NCBI GenBank assembly: GCA_046757025.1
Contig: JBHHXN010000001.1
Span: 59,185 to 123,184, forward strand
DNA length: 64,000 bases
Reading direction: 5' to 3'
Source: a bacterium
Lineage (GTDB): Bacteria; Zhuqueibacterota; Zhuqueibacteria; Oceanimicrobiales; Oceanimicrobiaceae
Numbering within the stretch: the first letter of the stretch is position 1; each line of letters begins with the position of its first letter. Below, in pieces: positions 33,001 through 60,000 of the stretch. The position numbers were made by a program.

Positions 33001-36000
33001 GCCATCCGATCGTTTCAATGCGGACATCTGGAATACCTCGCCATCGGAAATTTTTTGGTGACGAACGATTCGCTGCAGAATAAACCATAGGGAATAATAG
33101 AGAGATTGTTTGCTAATTAAAGCACAATTTATTAAAGGAACCTGTTTCGTTGTCAATAAATTGTGCTTCTTGTTTAATAGATTTTGTGGATGGAGAGAAA
33201 TTAAGAATAATCAGGCTTCTGCAAAAAAAGGTGTTCAACCTTTAGAGCCTGTGTGAAAAGTCAACTTCCGGGCTTTTGTCATTCCCCGCTTTGCGGGACA
33301 GGCAGGAGGAATCTTTTTAGTTTTGAAGTAAAGTGTTGTTTATTAAAAAGATCTCGCGGTTGCGGGATGACAATAATGGCACATTGGGTTTTTAGCTGCG
33401 ATATCACTTTTTCACACAGACTCTTTAGGTTGAAGCACCTCAACTAAATTTCATTTTGCGGATTTCTAAAGAGTAATTTTATAAGGAGGATTATAATGAA
33501 CAAGTGTGTTTTTTTGATTCAAAGGTTCGACAATTACTGGCTAAAAATATTGATTTTTTCACTGTTGGCAGTTTGTCTGTTGACCCAAACCGCTCAAAGT
33601 CAGAGCACACACACCTTTCCACGGATTGCGGTACAGCATTTTGGCAAAGCGCCTCCGGACTGGTATGCGAGATTTGACATGGTCATCGTTCCACGTGCGA
33701 ATGCGAGCGAAGCCCGCAGCATCAAGGCGCTGAACCCAAACTGCTACGTGATTTTTACGGATGAGTGGTCTTCAAACACCAAAGGCATGAAACGAAGAAA
33801 TCAGCTTCCAGATGCCTGGCTGGCGCGGGATTCAAAAGGAAACATCATCGATCTAAGCTGGGGCAAACTCATCGATATGTCCATACTTTGCCCCAAAGTA
33901 AAAGGAAAGGCCTATTATGAAGATCATCCGCAATGGCTGGTGAACTACACCGACCTCAGCGTGTTTGATGGCATTGGCAGCGACTGGTGCTGGGGTAAGC
34001 CGCACGGAATCAAAGATATCGATTTGGATCGAAATGGGGTAAATGATTTTGATGAACATGGCAAAAATTGGGTTGAATCCAAATGGCTCGACGGCGTGTT
34101 AGCATTTATTGCCAATTTGAGAAAACATATTGGTCAGGACAAATTGATCTGGGTCAATTCCGGGCAATTCCAGAGATGGGGATGGGAGTATGCGAATGGC
34201 CTGGAATTAGAACGCTATTCCGGCATTTTAGGTTGGGATTTCTACATTCGCACCTACAAGAATTTTATGAAGCAAGCGCCTAAACCTCAGATTTTGTTGA
34301 TGGATGTGCGACCGTGGGGTAGCGATAACAATTTAGTTCGACCGACGAAAAATTATTTAAAATTGATGCGGTTCATGTTAACAGCCACGTTACTCGGCGA
34401 TGGTTATTTCAATTTTAATCCTGTGGAAGCGGGGGAACATCACTATCACAGCTACTATGATGAATTCGATGTGAATTTAGGCTATCCCACTTCCGAAGCC
34501 CTGGAATTGTCCAACGGCTGTTGGGTGCGTTTTTATGATAACGGCGTGTCCATCACCAATCCCACCGGACGGACCAAAGTGGTGGATGATGGGGCTTTGC
34601 GCTCGGTCTCCGGCTACGACGGTCCCTATTATCGTTTTTTGGGAGGCCAGGATCCGCAATTTAATAACGGACAAAAATTCACCAGCGTCGAGCTGTTTGG
34701 GACCAGTCAGAGAAAGGGTGGCCAGGACCTCATCACCGGTGATGGGATTATTTTGCTAAGAGAGCAAAAAATCGTGATTGCAGACATCATCATTGATAAC
34801 CTGGAATTTAATACCACGCCTACTCAGAAGCCAGCAAAATTTGTGGGAAATTGGCAGCAAGTTGACCAGGGAAGAGATTATTTCGCACAGAACAATCGAA
34901 GTCGCGAGAACTGGTATCCCCATGCTTATATTAACGGTGGCAACGGTTCACAGACGGCTACATTTAAACCTAACATCCGGGTACCAGGCGAATACGAAGT
35001 GCTTGAATGGCATGGTTACATAATTGAGAACCAGATGGCGCAGGATGTCACATACACCATCTATCATAAAAATGGCCAGAAAGTAGTAAAAGTGGATCAA
35101 AGTAAAAACCAGGGCCGCTGGAACAGTTTGGGTGTTTATTCATTTGATAATGGTCAATCCGGTAAAGTCGTGATTTCAAACAAAGCGAATGGCTTGGTCG
35201 TGGCGGATGCCATTACTTTTCGGTATAACGCTGGCGGTAAGCGTGTTGAAGTACCCGCACCGCCTACTGGAGTGAAAGTCGAAGTTTCAGCAAATTAAAG
35301 CAACAAACTGATCAGGAGAATCGAGTAGATCATGGCAACTTCCACGAATTTCAACTTCTGGCATCAATTGAAAATCACTTTGTGGTGGGGCTTGTTGATC
35401 GGCCTGCTCGCCGGCGCCGGAATTGCTTTATACGAAACTTGGTTTGCAAACTACTATATTCAAAAAGGATTGAGTGTTTTTGTTCTGGTAATTTTCTCAA
35501 AGAAAATATTAGCCTCGACCGGCGTTGCTTTCGTTTCTTTGCTGATTTTAGGCCTGGGCGTTTCGGGGTTCAGCCGTTGGTTCCTGGACATTCGAAACCC
35601 CGCCGCGGCCCGCCTCTCTTTGATTGCCGGCAGCCTCGTCCTGCTCATCGGCGGTTACTTTCTCAACAAATCTGAGTGGTTTCCCGCCATTTTATCTTTG
35701 CAGGGGATACTGGGGAATTTTGTCTTTTCCCTGGTGTGCGCCGGGTTGATGGTGGCTATGTATAAATTCCTGCTCAAAACTCAAATTGTCATCCCGGTGC
35801 CCGGTAAGAAGTTAGTCGGCAAATTGTACGGCAATATCAGCCTGTTCATTTTTGTGGCCGTTTTTCTGCTCTTCAATTTGTTTGCATACTGGCGGATTTC
35901 AACCCAGAAACCGGCAAATATCAATTTGGTTTTCATCACCATCGATACTTTGCGCGCCGACCGTCTGGGGTGTTACGGTTATGAACGCGATACCAGTCCG

Positions 36001-57000: not shown

Positions 57001-60000
57001 GAAAACCTGCTGGCCGTTTACCAGCAAGCCGATGCCCGCATTGCAGAAGTGTTAAAATTTGCCGATGAAAACACGGCAGTCATGATTCTCTCCGACCATG
57101 GCTTTTCTTACGGCGACATCACCGGTGAATCGAAATTTGGCCACTGGCAGGGACAGGAAGGGGTGTTTATTTTGTCCGGACCCCACATCAAAAAGAATTA
57201 CGATTTGTCCGAGATCGCCATTTTTGATTTTTTACCGACTTTGCTCTACATGCAAAATATGCCCGTAGCCATCGATTTAAAAGGGCAGGTGCTTTTATCC
57301 GCTTTTGAGGACGATTTTATTGATACCCACCCCGTGCGCTATATTTCATCTTTTGAAAGGCAGTCCGAACATTCGGATAAACCCGTGCAAACCAACATAA
57401 ACAAGGAAATCGAGAAGAAGCTGAAGTCGTTGGGCTACATAAATTGATGGTGAAACGGGTATTGAAAATGGACTTTTCGAAATAAAATTGAATGTGAAGA
57501 ACAAATGACCCCAAAATCGAAAATCAATGTTTTACAATTAGTTGAAGGATTGAATTTAGGCGGGGCGGAAACCAAACTGTTGGAGCTGGTTGCCCACATG
57601 GATCGCAGCCGTTTTAACACCGTGTTTTGCAGCCTCGGCATGGGCGAGCGCATCAAAGAAAAAGTGGACGCTTTGGATGTGAAATACGTAGGTCTGCAAA
57701 GGCGCAGGCGCTTTGATCCGAAATTGGTATGGGATGTGGCTAAAATTGTTCGGCAGGAAAAAATCGACGTGGTGATGACGACGTTGTTTTATGCAGATGT
57801 GGTGGGGGCTTTGGCGCGTATCATCAGCCCCACCAAAGCGGTATTCTCCTGGGAGACGATTTCAGCGCCGGAATGGCTGCTGAAACACCGGTTGCTTGCG
57901 TACAAATTTGCCATGCGCTTTTGTGACAAAGTCATTTCGGTTTCAGAAGCCACCGCCAAGTGGCTGGTGGAAAAACGGGGGGTTGCCAGAGAAAAAGTGC
58001 TGGTCATTCCTTACGGAGTGAATCTGGAGGTGTACAAACAGGGTAAGAATCTGGCGCTCAAACGCCAGCTTGGAATCGCACCGGAAACCTTTGTCGTCGG
58101 CACCGTCGCCCGGCTGCATCCACAAAAAGGGCATGAGTATTTGATTGAAGCCGCGAAAAAAATCGTGGAGCGGCATGCAAATGTGAAATTTGTGTTTGTT
58201 GGCGATGGTGAAATGCGCAAAAAATTGGAAGCCCGGATTGAAACCGCCGGCTTGGAAAATAATTTTCTGCTTTTAGGTTTTCGGGACGATGTAACAGATC
58301 TGCTGCGTGTGTTTGATATTTTCGTTTTGCCTTCGTTATATGAAGGATTGCCCAATGTTATCCTGGAAGCCATGGCCACCGGCTTGCCGGTCGTGGCTAC
58401 GGCGGTGGATGGCTCGGTGGAATTGGTGAACGATGGCGAGACCGGCTTTCTAGTGCCCCCCAGAGAGCCTCAGGCCCTAATTGCGAAAATCAACACCCTC
58501 ATTCAAAATCCGCAACGTGTGCTGGATTTCGGCATGCAGGGTAGAAATCGAGTCGAGTCCATTTATTCACTGGAAAAACAGGTTGAACATTTTCAGCAGT
58601 TGTACGAGAGTTACGCCGTTAATGGGCAGAGAAACGGGGGAACAGCTTGATTATTAGCGTATCATTTAACCAGCGAGACTCTTTTCACAAATCAAATTTC
58701 ACGGGCGCGATTTCAAAGCGCCTTTTTTATTGCCTAATTCCGCACCTGCAGGCTGTTTTCAATTTCTCTAGTTGTCGCATTAAAAGTCCAGTGCTTTTCA
58801 TCAAAAACCGAGATTGAATGATATTGTGAGTAGCCAACCAGCCGAGCTACTATGTTTAGAAATGAAACAAGTGTATGATTATTATACAAATTGATTTTAA
58901 TTTTTCAAATGGGAATCCCTGTTATAGGTAGCGTGTTTGCAATTGCTTATAATTTATGTATTTATTAATAATTTAGCTGTAAATTAGTGGCATAAAAATT
59001 GCCAGTTCTCTGAAGAATTTGCGAATTCGGGATCGGAACCCGGACATAGTAGATTAATTGCATAAAGTTTAAAGTGCAATTTCCGATAAATATATAGAAT
59101 TAGAGTACTTTACGAGCAAAAATTGTTACTATTCAGCCTAAACCGTCATGCTGAGCGCAATCTCCCAAATGCGGCGCCTCTCACCGGAAGTACCTGCGCG
59201 AAGCATCTTGCGAAGCGGTTTAGAGATTCTTCGCACATCAGGGATACAGGAGATGAGGAAAGAATCCGGAGTTTGTGCTCAGAATGACGACTCGGGCTGA
59301 AGAGTTACCTAAATTTAAAGGAAATTTCTCCAAAATCTTAAACTCCACATCAGGCTGATTGTCGAATGGACCATCACAAAAAAGTAGCGGTTTTAGTGCC
59401 GGCGTTGAACGAAGCAGAATCCATTGAAAAGGTCATTTCCGGGATTAAAAAGGTCAACTCCGATTACGATATTATCGTCATCGACGACGGCTCCACGGAT
59501 GAAACCGCCGTCATCGCCAAAAATGCAGGGGTAACGGTTCTTTCACTGCCGGTAAATTTAGGCTATGGCGCGGCTTTGCAGACAGGCTACAAATATGCAT
59601 TGATGCATGGTTACGATTTCACGGTTCAAATCGATGGCGATGGTCAACACGACCCCAAATTTATTCGTCCTCTCATCGAACTGCTGAGCAACGGTGCAGA
59701 TGTCGCAATCGGTTCGCGGTTTTTGGGAAATTTAGGCGGATACAACAATCCTACCTTGCGTCAGATCGGGATGATGTTTTTCCGGTTTTTGATTTTTTTG
59801 TTCATAAAACAAAAAATTTCTGATCCGACCTCCGGATTTCAAGCGCTGACAAGAGAAGTGGTGGCGTTTTTTGCCAAAAGCAAGCAGTATCCTTCTGACT
59901 TCCCAGATGCCGACATCATCATACTGCTGCATTATTCCGGATTTAAAATTGCCGAAATTCCGGTTGCAATGTACCGTAGTGAAACCGGCAAATCCATGCA

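Follow-up and report, generated by a model that had tools for sequence, protein, structure and literature searches.

An alkaline phosphatase-fold gene module joined to PAPS synthesis as candidate sulfation machinery of a bacterial polysaccharide locus

The 35.3–57.4 kb part of the window (the whole stretch of DNA analysed, 64 kb) is best explained as the portion responsible for sulfation in a 64-kb Wzx/Wzy-type polysaccharide locus, which belongs to an uncultured bacterium, probably similar to KSB1. Eight enzymes of the alkaline phosphatase (AlkP) fold are the best candidates for the attachment of sulfate to the polysaccharide, and we assign a probability of about one half to an AlkP-fold, PAPS-linked sulfation machinery. 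ATP sulfurylase, Pfus, APS kinase and P448 constitute a conserved module, which is extended in the window by three PF01663 paralogs and a trio of sulfatase-fold proteins (Table 1). Conservation of the AlkP-fold module extends over many bacterial phyla and to salt-loving archaea. The placing of P448 in a large family with an APS kinase neighbourhood across about ten phyla is new, and the PF01663 core and the C-terminal tail described below appear to be undescribed.

Table 1. Genes of the putative sulfation region and neighbouring context genes (TM, transmembrane)
Feature	Coordinates	Strand	Evidence	Sequence features
S622, sulfatase-fold	35332..37200	+	PF00884 E 1.6e-52; SGSH_C	~5–6 N-terminal TM helices; Thr nucleophile in T-W-P-S-L; tail ...EERLRALGYIK
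S713, sulfatase-fold	37451..39592	+	PF00884 E 1e-43	~6–7 TM helices; Thr nucleophile in T-I-P-S-H; tail ...EERLRSLGYLK
S577, sulfatase-fold	39739..41472	+	PF00884 E 4e-44	3 TM helices; Thr nucleophile in T-S-P-S-H; tail ...IEKLKSLGYIR
Heparinase II/III-like, membrane-anchored	41490..44081	+	PF16889, PF07940; context	5 predicted TM helices
DUF2061 small membrane protein	44302..44601	+	PF09834; tail match	tail ...EERLKELGYL
P726, PF01663 paralog	44680..46860	+	PF01663 E 9e-29; catalytic residues aligned	N-terminal signal/TM hairpin, then basic stretch; insert domain; tail-less
P659, PF01663 paralog	46853..48832	+	PF01663 E 6e-39; gene call in Logan contigs; catalytic residues aligned	N-terminal signal anchor or lipoprotein-like; insert domain; tail-less
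63-aa protein	48864..49055	+	tail match	tail ...KKRLQGLGYLS
Membrane protein, family-less	49119..49946	+	retained with module in close relatives L010, L013, L099
SAM-dependent methyltransferase	50011..50853	+	Methyltransf_23/11/25; context
ATP sulfurylase (residues 1–390) fused to Pfus (residues ~420–878)	50872..53508	+	PF14306 (PUA_2), PF01747, PF01663 E 5e-50	tail-less
APS kinase	53713..54336	+	PF01583, 207 bits	acidic linker, then C-terminal tail (15 residues, not shown)
P448 (448 aa), soluble PF01663 enzyme	54336..55682	+	PF01663 E 2e-47
P580, PF01663 paralog	55705..57447	+	PF01663 E 3e-24; catalytic residues aligned	3 N-terminal TM helices; short form without cap insert; tail ...EKKLKSLGYIN
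Small GT2 (245 aa) and DUF2304 membrane protein	59366..60500	+	PF00535, PF10066; context
PMT_2 protein, one of three in window	62383..63927	+	PF13231; context

All eight AlkP-fold genes are genuine ORFs at the coordinates given, and the metal ligands and the Ser/Thr nucleophile are kept in 8/8 of the proteins (three of the S1-sulfatase fold and five of PF01663). The two subfamilies of paralogs that a sequence-only reading had proposed are thus real, with three PF00884 and five PF01663 members in the Pfam profile search, and the ATP sulfurylase and APS kinase with which they were said to be interleaved were both found by the same kind of search. The N-terminal part of the fusion protein is, on its sequence, a bona fide ATP sulfurylase (NCBIfam PRK04149, 580 bits vs a cutoff of 387). 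The APS kinase stop and the P448 start overlap by 1 nt. The PF01663 proteins match their profile at E 3e-24 to 5e-50, and the motifs they had been noted to have in common, (S/T)P.AW...TG and SDHG, are present in all five. When they are aligned, the nucleophile column is Ser or Thr in 5/5, and D19, D209, H213, D259 and H260 (P448 numbering) are invariant. Orthologues of P726 occur in L010, L013, L033 and L099 of the related loci, and the P580 orthologue in L012 is also tailed. The number of PF01663-type paralogs reaches five in the window and six in L052, with differing anchors.

The link to PAPS is seen most widely through P448. The family comprises 2999 clusters at E <= 1e-30, with D19, S58, D209, H213, D259, H260 and H400 invariant; the AF2 model (pLDDT 85.8) finds its nearest folds in PhnA and NPP (TM ~0.6). 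With P448 as query, 80 genomic loci were returned from about ten phyla, namely KSB1, Zixibacteria, Calditrichota, Chloroflexota, Thermodesulfobacteriota, LCP-89, TA06, Latescibacterota, Rokubacteria and Actinomycetota. APS kinase was found in 58/80, and in 54 of the 72 loci informative for the upstream gene it lies upstream of P448 on the same strand, directly adjacent in 45. In the other 18, mostly of Chloroflexota, the 2.5 kb upstream of P448 contain no APS kinase, which counts against the sulfation reading. The recurring core order is [small protein]-ATP sulfurylase-Pfus-APS kinase-P448, where Pfus in most other loci is a stand-alone gene between the two activation enzymes; Pfus also co-occurs with plain APS kinases without P448. 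In a reverse test on 56 metagenome loci picked through APS kinase, a PF01663 gene was present in the locus of 11/13 extended-tail kinases vs 6/43 plain kinases (odds ratio 34, Fisher p = 5e-6). A CysQ-like Inositol_P gene lies directly 3′ of P448 in L048, L054 and L060; the first two of these, and also L039 and L040, have a Na/sulfate symporter upstream. With a CysQ-like PAP phosphatase next to it in the former three loci, P448 takes the slot of a PAPS consumer and is probably not itself the PAP phosphatase.

A C-terminal tail, '...EE..RL..LGY(L/I)', is common to seven window proteins, namely APS kinase, the sulfatase-like trio, P580, the DUF2061 protein and the 63-aa protein. In related loci it ends 96 of 11506 ORFs, of which 92 are system proteins, and it marks system proteins of bacteria as well as those of haloarchaeal glycosylation clusters. 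It is carried by 52/58 of the APS kinases neighbouring P448 orthologues, while the search for it in the P448 orthologues themselves found it in 0/120 and 0/124. LG is invariant and Y is kept in at least 90% in the sulfatase-like family; among the kinases (alignment A4), R200 and L201 do not vary, nor do L204, G205 and Y206 of the LGY. In other loci, many of the tailed sulfatase-like proteins and of the Pfus proteins have neither a signal peptide nor a TM helix; they are therefore cytoplasmic and able to reach PAPS. The tail may be a docking helix that keeps the activation and transfer enzymes together.

The PF00884 matches of the trio range from E 1e-43 to 1e-52, and SGSH_C is matched as well. 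Replacement of the sulfatase signature C/S-x-P-x-R by the three Thr motifs of Table 1 had been read in the sequence, and an alignment made with HMMER against choline sulfatase 7oz8 agrees, with Thr at the formylglycine position and His at the Arg position. Among 35 homologues of S577, T190, H194, D395, H396 and tail residues L573 and G574 are invariant, and Y575 is kept in at least 90%. The earlier assignment to an LtaS/EptA architecture holds for the N-terminal TM helices and the Thr nucleophile and fails for the catalytic domain, which is S1-sulfatase/PMH-like by HMM and fold. The NCBIfam arylsulfatase model scores the catalytic domains at 148–173 bits vs 15–42 bits for the LtaS/EptA/CptA/OpgB models, and the best 50 Foldseek matches of the S577 model (AF2, pLDDT 88.6) are all S1 sulfatases or PMH; membership in the LtaS, EptA, CptA or OpgB families is not supported by these results.

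Haloarchaeal megaplasmids hold the same set of genes. For instance, the order in Halopiger is tailed sulfatase (Thr), GT4, tailed PF01663 protein, GT4, tailed sulfatase, GT4, tailed PAPS_reduct-family protein, PHO4 transporter and tail-less P448 homologue. Similarly, three tailed PF01663 proteins and a tailed sulfatase-like protein lie inside a flippase/GT cluster of Natronorubrum. The S713 catalytic domain shares 26–32% identity with haloarchaeal 'sulfatase' homologues at 98–100% coverage. In Halobacterium salinarum, N-glycan sulfation is lost on deletion of Agl30 and Agl31, two AlkP-superfamily proteins of the sulfatase fold, and their expression in Haloferax leads to sulfation of the Haloferax glycan (PMC11980604, 2025). 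They are sulfotransferases on genetic evidence, and one is membrane-bound (PMC11980604). Both they and the trio are sulfatase-fold, a likeness of fold class. The tie of the AlkP paralogs to PAPS, proposed earlier either as a route for sulfuryl transfer or as PAPS/APS/PAP processing, is supported by the P448-APS kinase neighbourhood in about ten phyla, the ATP sulfurylase-Pfus fusion, the tail common to APS kinase and AlkP-fold proteins, and the Agl30/31 genetics.

The reported lack of a P-loop sulfotransferase in the 64 kb was upheld. Pfam Sulfotransfer_1–5 matched none of the plus-strand ORFs that reach 120 aa. An HMM built by iteration on genuine P-loop sulfotransferases from related loci had no match in the window, and a six-frame scan of the window for a 5′-PSB-like motif gave none inside a gene. 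No family was assigned to the window ORFs 26308–28212 and 49119–49946 (the latter without a match in Pfam or NCBIfam) and to the N-terminal part of 33496–35298. A canonical sulfotransferase was not found in 71/81 related loci, and 10/81 carry one; these enzymes are interleaved with APS kinase and P448 in L014, L015, L016 and L022 and lie nearby in L007, L009 (an 80%-identical relative) and L068. Since they co-occur with APS kinase and P448 in the ten loci, P448 is no simple replacement for them.

In the proposed sulfation, PAPS made by the module would be consumed by AlkP-fold enzymes standing in for P-loop sulfotransferases. A Ser/Thr alkoxide would accept the sulfuryl group in a ping-pong reaction, with formation of a covalent sulfo-enzyme and release of PAP, and the sulfo-enzyme would then hand the group on to a hydroxyl of the sugar. 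Its strong conservation, its constant lack of the tail and its place immediately behind the tailed APS kinase make P448 the best candidate for the initial step of PAPS consumption, in which the acceptor may be a sugar linked to polyprenyl phosphate. Particular positions on the polymer would be served by the sulfatase-like trio and by the variable paralogs that bear the tail. For Pfus, which lies between, or is fused to, activation enzymes, an auxiliary role in sulfate activation, such as pyrophosphate removal, is more likely. The synteny, the reverse test, the fusion, the tail, the haloarchaeal clusters, the Agl30/31 precedent, the CysQ-like neighbour, the absence of P-loop sulfotransferases, and the intact catalytic sets with confident models support this sulfation. 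However, two-metal NPP-type sites favour attack at phosphorus, by which sulfate would be released from PAPS and not transferred, and this preference counts against sulfuryl transfer by PF01663 enzymes.

Alternatively, the PF01663 core could be helpers of sulfate activation, with P-loop enzymes elsewhere in the genome carrying out sulfotransfer; we consider this possible, if rather unlikely. Pfus would be a pyrophosphatase pulling ATP sulfurylase, and P448 a PAP/PAPS/APS phosphodiesterase or phosphatase controlling the pool. The position of Pfus and its occurrence with plain APS kinases in the absence of P448 agree with such roles, as do the P-loop sulfotransferases within four modules and near three others, and the nearest folds, PhnA and NPP, are hydrolases. 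ATP sulfurylase-pyrophosphatase fusions are also found in some eukaryotes. Nevertheless, a second PAP phosphatase would be redundant where the CysQ-like one follows P448, and helper roles leave unexplained the numerous paralogs of the window and L052 with their differing anchors, as well as the family's place beside GTs and flippases in haloarchaeal glycosylation clusters. That neither the window nor 71 of the 81 loci showed a P-loop sulfotransferase also argues against it.

It is doubtful that the trio, perhaps with P580 and P659, adds phosphoglycerol or phosphoethanolamine from membrane lipids to the polymer in the periplasm, in the same role as LtaS, EptA, OpgB and BcsG, the PAPS genes being neighbours by coincidence within one polysaccharide locus. 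The multi-TM N-terminal region and Thr nucleophile, lipoprotein signals on some homologues, and the sulfatase GKWH Lys/His pair, seemingly missing from the S577 sequence, speak for such a transfer. By positive-inside counts the S577 family and P580 are predicted to have their catalytic domains on the outer side of the membrane, on which no PAPS is expected, and tailed sulfatase-like proteins are found too where a polysaccharide locus has neither PAPS nor PF01663 genes close by; both count against PAPS-linked sulfation, and the S577-family location and these homologues fit phospho-alcohol transfer. Yet the domains are S1-sulfatase/PMH-like and not LtaS/EptA-like, their tail is that of the cytoplasmic APS kinase, related tailed members lack any signal peptide or TM helix, and archaeal sulfatase-fold proteins of this general kind, one membrane-bound, are proven sulfotransferases (PMC11980604). 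It is highly improbable that the paralogs are true sulfatases and phosphodiesterases editing or recycling a sulfated polymer after export. The PF00884 and PF01663 annotations and the GH39 and lyase-like proteins of the locus would suit this, but Thr in place of Cys/Ser leaves no formylglycine motif, no maturase Pfam family occurs in the window, and the cytoplasmic P448 and Pfus share operons with the genes of PAPS synthesis.

Several context genes accompany the putative sulfation genes. A DUF2061 homologue adjoins APS kinase in L025, L030 and L010. The 63-aa protein, which gave no significant match in a Pfam search, recurs upstream of ATP sulfurylase, with tailed homologues in 11 loci. The GT2-DUF2304 pair is possibly a polyprenyl-phosphate-sugar module, and the GT2 has homologues in 16 related loci besides the window. 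We take the PMT_2 protein to be a GT-C glycosyltransferase; PMT_2/TMEM260-like genes occur in at least 10 related loci. The heparinase II/III-like protein is possibly a lyase or uronate epimerase; by Pfam search, the locus has a GH39 protein and two lyase-like proteins.

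Gene order and motif conservation show a conserved module in which sulfate activation is coupled to AlkP-fold enzymes with intact Ser/Thr-metal sites, and a C-terminal tail marks its members. A functional tie of the AlkP paralogs to PAPS metabolism is very probable; that they constitute PAPS-linked sulfation machinery, by the mechanism proposed below, is given a probability of about 0.5. In the window, the N-terminus of the fusion protein that precedes the APS kinase is a complete Sat-type ATP sulfurylase (NCBIfam, 580 bits). The sequence-only reading had found no P-loop sulfotransferase, and this holds for the 64-kb window: no Sulfotransfer Pfam family (PF00685, PF03567, PF13469 and relatives) occurs in the scanned ORFs, an HMM built iteratively on authentic P-loop sulfotransferases from related loci has no match, and no PSB-like motif lies inside any gene. 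Two unassigned ORFs (26308-28212 and 33496-35298) gave no sulfotransferase-like PDB match by sequence. With the canonical PAPS pathway (CysD/N or Sat, CysC, CysQ; PF00685/PF13469) the window shares the Sat-type ATP sulfurylase and the APS kinase, and CysQ-like and sulfate-symporter genes are also found in some related loci. It differs in having no P-loop sulfotransferase, as do most related loci, in its tailed APS kinase, and in the two AlkP-fold genes of the operon.

Positions of the features discussed, in the window unless a related locus (L number) is named
Feature	Position	Strand	Basis or remark
PMT_2 (GT-C) genes, three	8635-10332, 18720-20381, 62383-63927		Pfam
carAB (carbamoyl-phosphate synthase small and large subunits) and two carbamoyltransferases	11490-18055 and 31357-33090		
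FrhB/FdhB-like iron-sulfur protein	24825-26231		within the polysaccharide locus
S622, sulfatase-like	35332-37200		signature position T-W-P-S-L; tail 37171-37200
S713, sulfatase-like	37451-39592		signature position T-I-P-S-H; tail 39563-39592
S577, sulfatase-like	39739-41472		signature position T-S-P-S-H; tail 41443-41472
Heparinase II/III-like protein	41490-44081		~five N-terminal TM helices; 3' of the sulfatase-like trio
DUF2061 protein, tail	44572-44601		
P726, PF01663 paralog	44680-46860	+	Pfam
P659, PF01663 paralog	46853-48832	+	Pfam
Block of tailed 63-aa protein, 275-aa membrane protein of no named family and SAM methyltransferase	48864-50853		tail of the 63-aa protein 49026-49055
ATP sulfurylase fusion with Pfus	50872-53508	+	Pfam; PF01663 in the C-terminal half
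APS kinase	53713-54336		tail 54307-54336
Native kinase motif, acidic linker and second copy	54190-54336		also alignment A4 and L094-L173
P448, PF01663 paralog	54336-55682	+	Pfam
P580, PF01663 paralog	55705-57447	+	Pfam; tail 57418-57447
Dpm1/GtrB-like GT2 (245 aa) and DUF2304 protein	59366-60500		
Tail in related loci	L005-L087, L091, L093		bacterial phyla and haloarchaea
P448/~270-aa/TMEM260-like set, Chloroflexota	L042 8858-16259; L051, L056, L059, L064, L069		
CysQ-like Inositol_P phosphatase	L048 11438-12244, L054 11497-12342, L060 ~11404		3' of P448
Na/sulfate symporter	L054 5740-7128; also L048, L039, L040		5' of the operon
PAPS_reduct-family (CysD/CysH-like) protein	L091 9730-10701		LGY tail; by PHO4-type transporter and P448 homologue
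Tailed lipoprotein-type sulfatase-like gene and TPR protein gene	L088 8007-11434		

The tie to APS kinase recurs far beyond the window. A scan for the P448 family (the PF01663 enzyme encoded next to the APS kinase) with one genome per species yielded 80 loci, distributed over KSB1, Zixibacteria, Calditrichota, Chloroflexota, Thermodesulfobacteriota, LCP-89, TA06, Latescibacterota, Rokubacteria and Actinomycetota. Of these, 58 contain an APS kinase. In the 72 loci whose upstream sequence suffices, the kinase gene stands 5' of P448 in the same orientation 54 times, 45 times as its immediate neighbour. ATP sulfurylase occurs at most 10 kb from P448 in 32 loci. The recurrent gene order is (small protein)-ATPS-Pfus-APSK-P448, where Pfus is the PF01663 enzyme that forms the C-terminal part of the window's sulfurylase fusion, and on a Syntrophobacterales chromosome Pfus-DUF2061-APSK-P448 stands isolated amid housekeeping genes. 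The reverse test used 80 metagenome loci picked via APS kinase rather than P448, 56 of them with sufficient flanks: a PF01663 gene is in the locus for 11/13 kinases with an extended tail versus 6/43 plain kinases (odds ratio 34, Fisher p = 5e-6).

Among DISCRIMINATING functions, a CysQ-like Inositol_P gene lies directly 3' of P448 in L048, L054 and L060. A Usp protein is encoded 5' in L048 and L054, as is the symporter. Flanked by symporter and CysQ-like gene, the L048/L054 operon reads as uptake, ATP sulfurylase, APS kinase, P448 and PAP phosphatase, an order in which P448 takes the place of the PAPS consumer. With CysQ-like genes directly downstream, P448 itself is unlikely to be the PAP phosphatase. 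The window and its closest relatives have Pfus fused to the sulfurylase; in general Pfus lies between the activation enzymes or is fused to them, and it is also found beside plain kinases without P448. From these positions we infer, as the simplest reading, that Pfus may be an accessory to activation, for instance in pyrophosphate removal.

The five PF01663 paralogs had been recognized accurately from the sequence; the domain is present in all five genes at 87-172 bits against a gathering cutoff of 23. The nucleophile column holds Ser or Thr in every paralog and aligns with the Thr of PhnA, while D19, D209, H213, D259 and H260 (P448 numbering) are invariant. H400 aligns in four of the five, the C-terminal part of P580 being poorly aligned. 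The AF2 model of P448 (pLDDT 85.8) has PhnA and the NPPs as its nearest folds, with TM ~0.6 and 12-19% identity, and sequence similarity to solved structures is marginal. Fold, two-metal ligands and Ser/Thr nucleophile are common to NPP/PhnA and the five paralogs. Unlike NPP/PhnA, P448 is cytoplasmic and operonic with APS kinase and ATP sulfurylase, and it has a cap region peculiar to the family as well as many further invariant residues. The family is large: clustered at 50% identity, it has 2999 clusters with E <= 1e-30.

Other neighbours of P448 belong to glycan assembly. The small GT2 (245 aa, read as Dpm1/GtrB-like) is found in 16 related loci and the window, often 3' of P448, and PMT_2 or TMEM260-like GT-C genes occur in at least ten related loci. 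Several Chloroflexota loci without APS kinase carry P448 together with a ~270-aa protein of no named family (274 aa) and a ~940-aa TMEM260-like GT-C; in L042 this set is flanked by an epimerase and, after the GT-C, a Glycos_transf_4 (WecA/MraY-type) gene. The GT2, GT-C and WecA/MraY-type neighbours suggest a polyprenyl-phosphate-linked sugar as the substrate, which P448 may sulfate before transfer by the GT-C.

Seven window proteins of differing folds end in ...E(E/K).L(K/R).LGY(I/L). Among 11506 ORFs of the related loci, 96 have this tail, where roughly 6 would be expected by chance (a rough estimate of our own, not a computed value), and 92 of the 96 are proteins of the system: 52 APS kinases, 12 Pfus, 11 small proteins, 7 sulfatase-like proteins, 6 P448 paralogs, 3 DUF2061 proteins and 1 P580. 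The consensus S/T-x-E-E-x-x-h-x-x-R-L-x-x-L-G-Y-h resembles a capped amphipathic helix, and in the S577 model the final residues are helical (pLDDT 74-81). The Leu and Gly of the tail are invariant in the sulfatase-like alignment, with Tyr in at least 90%; all three are invariant in the kinase alignment (A4). Plain APS kinases of this clade end in ...LEELGYL, and tailed kinases have the same native motif, an acidic linker and a second copy, so that the tail looks like a duplicate of the last kinase helix placed past an acidic linker.

P448 orthologues carry no tail (0/120 and 0/124), and 18 of 26 longer PF01663 paralogs do. The gene immediately 5' of P448 usually encodes a tailed protein, namely the APS kinase or, where the kinase is tail-less or absent, Pfus. 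P448 as a universal receptor for the tail is weakened by tailed sulfatase-like proteins that have no PAPS or PF01663 genes nearby, some of which appear exported. In L088, a tailed lipoprotein-type sulfatase-like gene overlaps the end of the gene for a 665-aa TPR protein by 4 nt; TPR proteins could be tail receptors in loci of this kind.

The sulfatase-like trio (S622, S713 and S577) was likewise well described as PF00884-type proteins with a Thr motif. PF00884 (E 1e-43 to 1e-52) and an SGSH_C subdomain lie behind 3-7 predicted TM helices, and the signature positions hold T-W-P-S-L, T-I-P-S-H and T-S-P-S-H. In a HMMER alignment to choline sulfatase 7oz8, Thr takes the formylglycine position and His the Arg position, and T190, H194, D395 and H396 of S577 are invariant among 35 homologues. 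In the PDB sequence search the best matches of the trio are carbohydrate and choline sulfatases. By positive-inside counts the catalytic domain of the S577 family would fall outside the membrane, hydropathy and these counts being ambiguous for the window proteins; members of that family mostly have 1-3 TM helices or lipoboxes. Many tailed sulfatase-like relatives have neither signal peptide nor TM helix and are thus predicted to be cytoplasmic, as are many Pfus proteins; the cytoplasmic APS kinase has this tail too.

A precedent exists in the Archaea. Zaretsky et al. (2025) described two Halobacterium salinarum proteins of the AlkP superfamily, the membrane-bound VNG1056C (Agl30) and the soluble VNG1057C (Agl31), for which S1 sulfatases (BT1596 5G2U, FA22070 6HHM) are the closest structures; both are needed for N-glycan sulfation, and their expression in Haloferax leads to sulfation of its glycan (PMC11980604). 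Donor, motifs and mechanism are not treated in that paper, nor are a PF01663 partner, an APS kinase link or the tail mentioned (PMC11980604). Like the trio, judged from fold and published description, Agl30/31 are sulfatase-fold AlkP proteins within a glycan-assembly cluster, with mixed membrane-bound and soluble members, no P-loop sulfotransferase involved, and 5G2U and 6HHM as structural matches shared with S577. They act on an archaeal N-glycan, whereas the window concerns a bacterial polysaccharide. In tblastn against plasmids, P448 has almost only haloarchaeal matches and the sulfatase-like domain many; S713 is 26-32% identical to haloarchaeal plasmid-encoded 'sulfatases'. Halopiger xanaduensis pHALXA01 (L091) encodes, in order, a tailed sulfatase with Thr, GT4, a tailed PF01663 protein, GT4, a second tailed sulfatase, GT4, a tailed PAPS_reduct protein, a PHO4-type transporter and a tail-less P448 homologue (35% identity). 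This stretch lacks an annotated APS kinase, so that APS might be the donor in haloarchaea. Natronorubrum bangense has three tailed PF01663 proteins and one tailed sulfatase-like protein in a flippase/GT cluster, and none of the Halopiger and Natronorubrum proteins listed has a signal peptide. Haloferax Agl7 (HVO_2046) was considered as a possible further AlkP-fold sulfotransferase. This lead was dropped: papers say only that it 'contributes to sulfation' and do not name its family, and it is absent from PMC11980604.

In the mechanism proposed for sulfation, PAPS from the tailed kinase would pass to P448. The paralogs would form a covalent sulfo-enzyme on Ser/Thr, with release of PAP, and pass the sulfuryl group to lipid-linked or polymer sugars, Pfus would aid activation, and the trio, by analogy with Agl30/Agl31, would be position-specific sulfotransferases. 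ASST, a PAPS-independent ping-pong enzyme with a covalent sulfo-enzyme intermediate (cited in PMC11625862), is a possible mechanistic analogy for the sulfo-enzyme route; unlike the window proteins it is a beta-propeller with a His nucleophile and phenolic sulfate donors, and there is no homology. A wider proposal is tentative: in Bacteria and Archaea, AlkP-fold Ser/Thr enzymes may replace or complement P-loop sulfotransferases, with P448 as a PAPS-dependent sulfotransferase or relay and the 'RL..LGY' element as a docking helix that joins the enzymes of activation and transfer.

Other roles have to be weighed against sulfation by the AlkP-fold proteins. P-loop sulfotransferases are present in 10 of 81 related loci, some between APSK and P448, which indicates that both kinds of enzyme are able to coexist. 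The paralogs could be imagined as accessory hydrolases, while P-loop sulfotransferases encoded outside the window would transfer the sulfate; we regard this as somewhat unlikely. For the membrane-anchored members, periplasmic phospho-alcohol transfer would suit the features that LtaS, EptA (MCR), OpgB and BcsG share with the trio: an N-terminal multi-TM region, an AlkP-type Thr/Ser domain and a link to envelope-polymer decoration. The LtaS/EptA label given from the sequence stands as far as the multi-TM N-terminus and the Thr nucleophile are concerned, but not as a family assignment. NCBIfam models for LtaS, EptA, CptA, MCR and OpgB score 14-42 bits (cutoffs 400-1250) and arylsulfatase 148-173 bits; the 50 best Foldseek matches of the S577 AF2 model (pLDDT 88.6) are all S1 sulfatases or phosphonate monoester hydrolases (PMH), with no LtaS/EptA structure among them. 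By alignment and predicted fold the trio is S1-sulfatase/PMH-like, not LtaS/EptA-like, and phospho-alcohol transfer appears distinctly improbable.

Kinship with S1 sulfatases and PMH (PF00884; SulfAtlas S1), with which the trio shares the fold, the C-terminal subdomain and the metal ligands Asp...Asp-His, might instead be taken to indicate degradative trimming. The signature C/S-x-P-x-R of S1 sulfatases is, however, T-x-P-x-H/L in the trio; with Cys/Ser absent formylglycine is impossible, and the trio therefore falls outside the strict definition of a sulfatase. Thr also replaces the second Asp of the DD pair, and N-terminal TM helices and the LGY tail further set the trio apart from S1 sulfatases. 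No FGE-sulfatase or radical-SAM Pfam family was found as a maturase in the window ORFs scanned. Degradative trimming is given very little weight.

Genome prediction of sulfated glycans usually relies on P-loop sulfotransferases. If AlkP-fold enzymes perform or support sulfation, this capacity has been overlooked in uncultured phyla (KSB1, Zixibacteria, Chloroflexota, Desulfobacterota and others) and in haloarchaea, and thousands of 'sulfatase' or 'alkaline phosphatase family' genes would be wrongly read as degradative. For Agl30/31 this would supply a donor pathway and a counterpart in Bacteria, together with a complex of tail and P448 that can be tested. Sulfuryl transfer via a Ser/Thr sulfo-enzyme, on a fold known from hydrolases, would become directly testable, and the tail would make it easy to recognize further systems of this kind in sequences. 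Sulfatase-fold sulfotransferases already have the one archaeal precedent in Agl30/31. No paper was found on bacterial counterparts, the link of a PF01663 core to APS kinase and ATP sulfurylase, the sulfurylase-Pfus fusion or the cross-domain tail; literature searches on AlkP-superfamily or 'sulfatase-like' sulfotransferases, AlkP-like proteins with PAPS, COG3379 and DUF2061 gave only the Agl30/31 paper as relevant.

The entire window is a single polysaccharide locus, with the large ORFs between 35.3 and 57.4 kb all on the + strand. It holds about 10 GT2 and GT4-type glycosyltransferases (Pfam Glycos_transf_2, Glycos_transf_1/Glyco_transf_4), two Wzx-type flippases and one Wzy-type polymerase, besides GH39, a methyltransferase, a deacetylase and the heparinase II/III-like membrane protein. 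The three PMT_2 genes and the Dpm1/GtrB-like GT2 with DUF2304 are characteristic of periplasmic glycosylation that draws on polyprenyl-phosphate sugars. The carAB and carbamoyltransferase genes suggest a carbamoylated polymer. The 634-aa ORF at 26308-28212 has no Pfam match and no credible PDB sequence match (best E 0.42); the look of its sequence might point to a lyase- or epimerase-like toroid, and both it and the heparinase II/III-like protein are possible uronate epimerases or lyases. Agl32, an archaeal C5-epimerase, lies outside the heparinase II/III family and so provides no parallel for the latter. The block with the tailed 63-aa protein is kept in the close relatives L010, L013 and L099, standing 5' of the sulfurylase fusion in L010 and L013. 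Apart from Logan assemblies of three runs and one NCBI MAG, no sequence identical to the window was found, and the nearest named relatives are KSB1 and Calditrichaceae MAGs.
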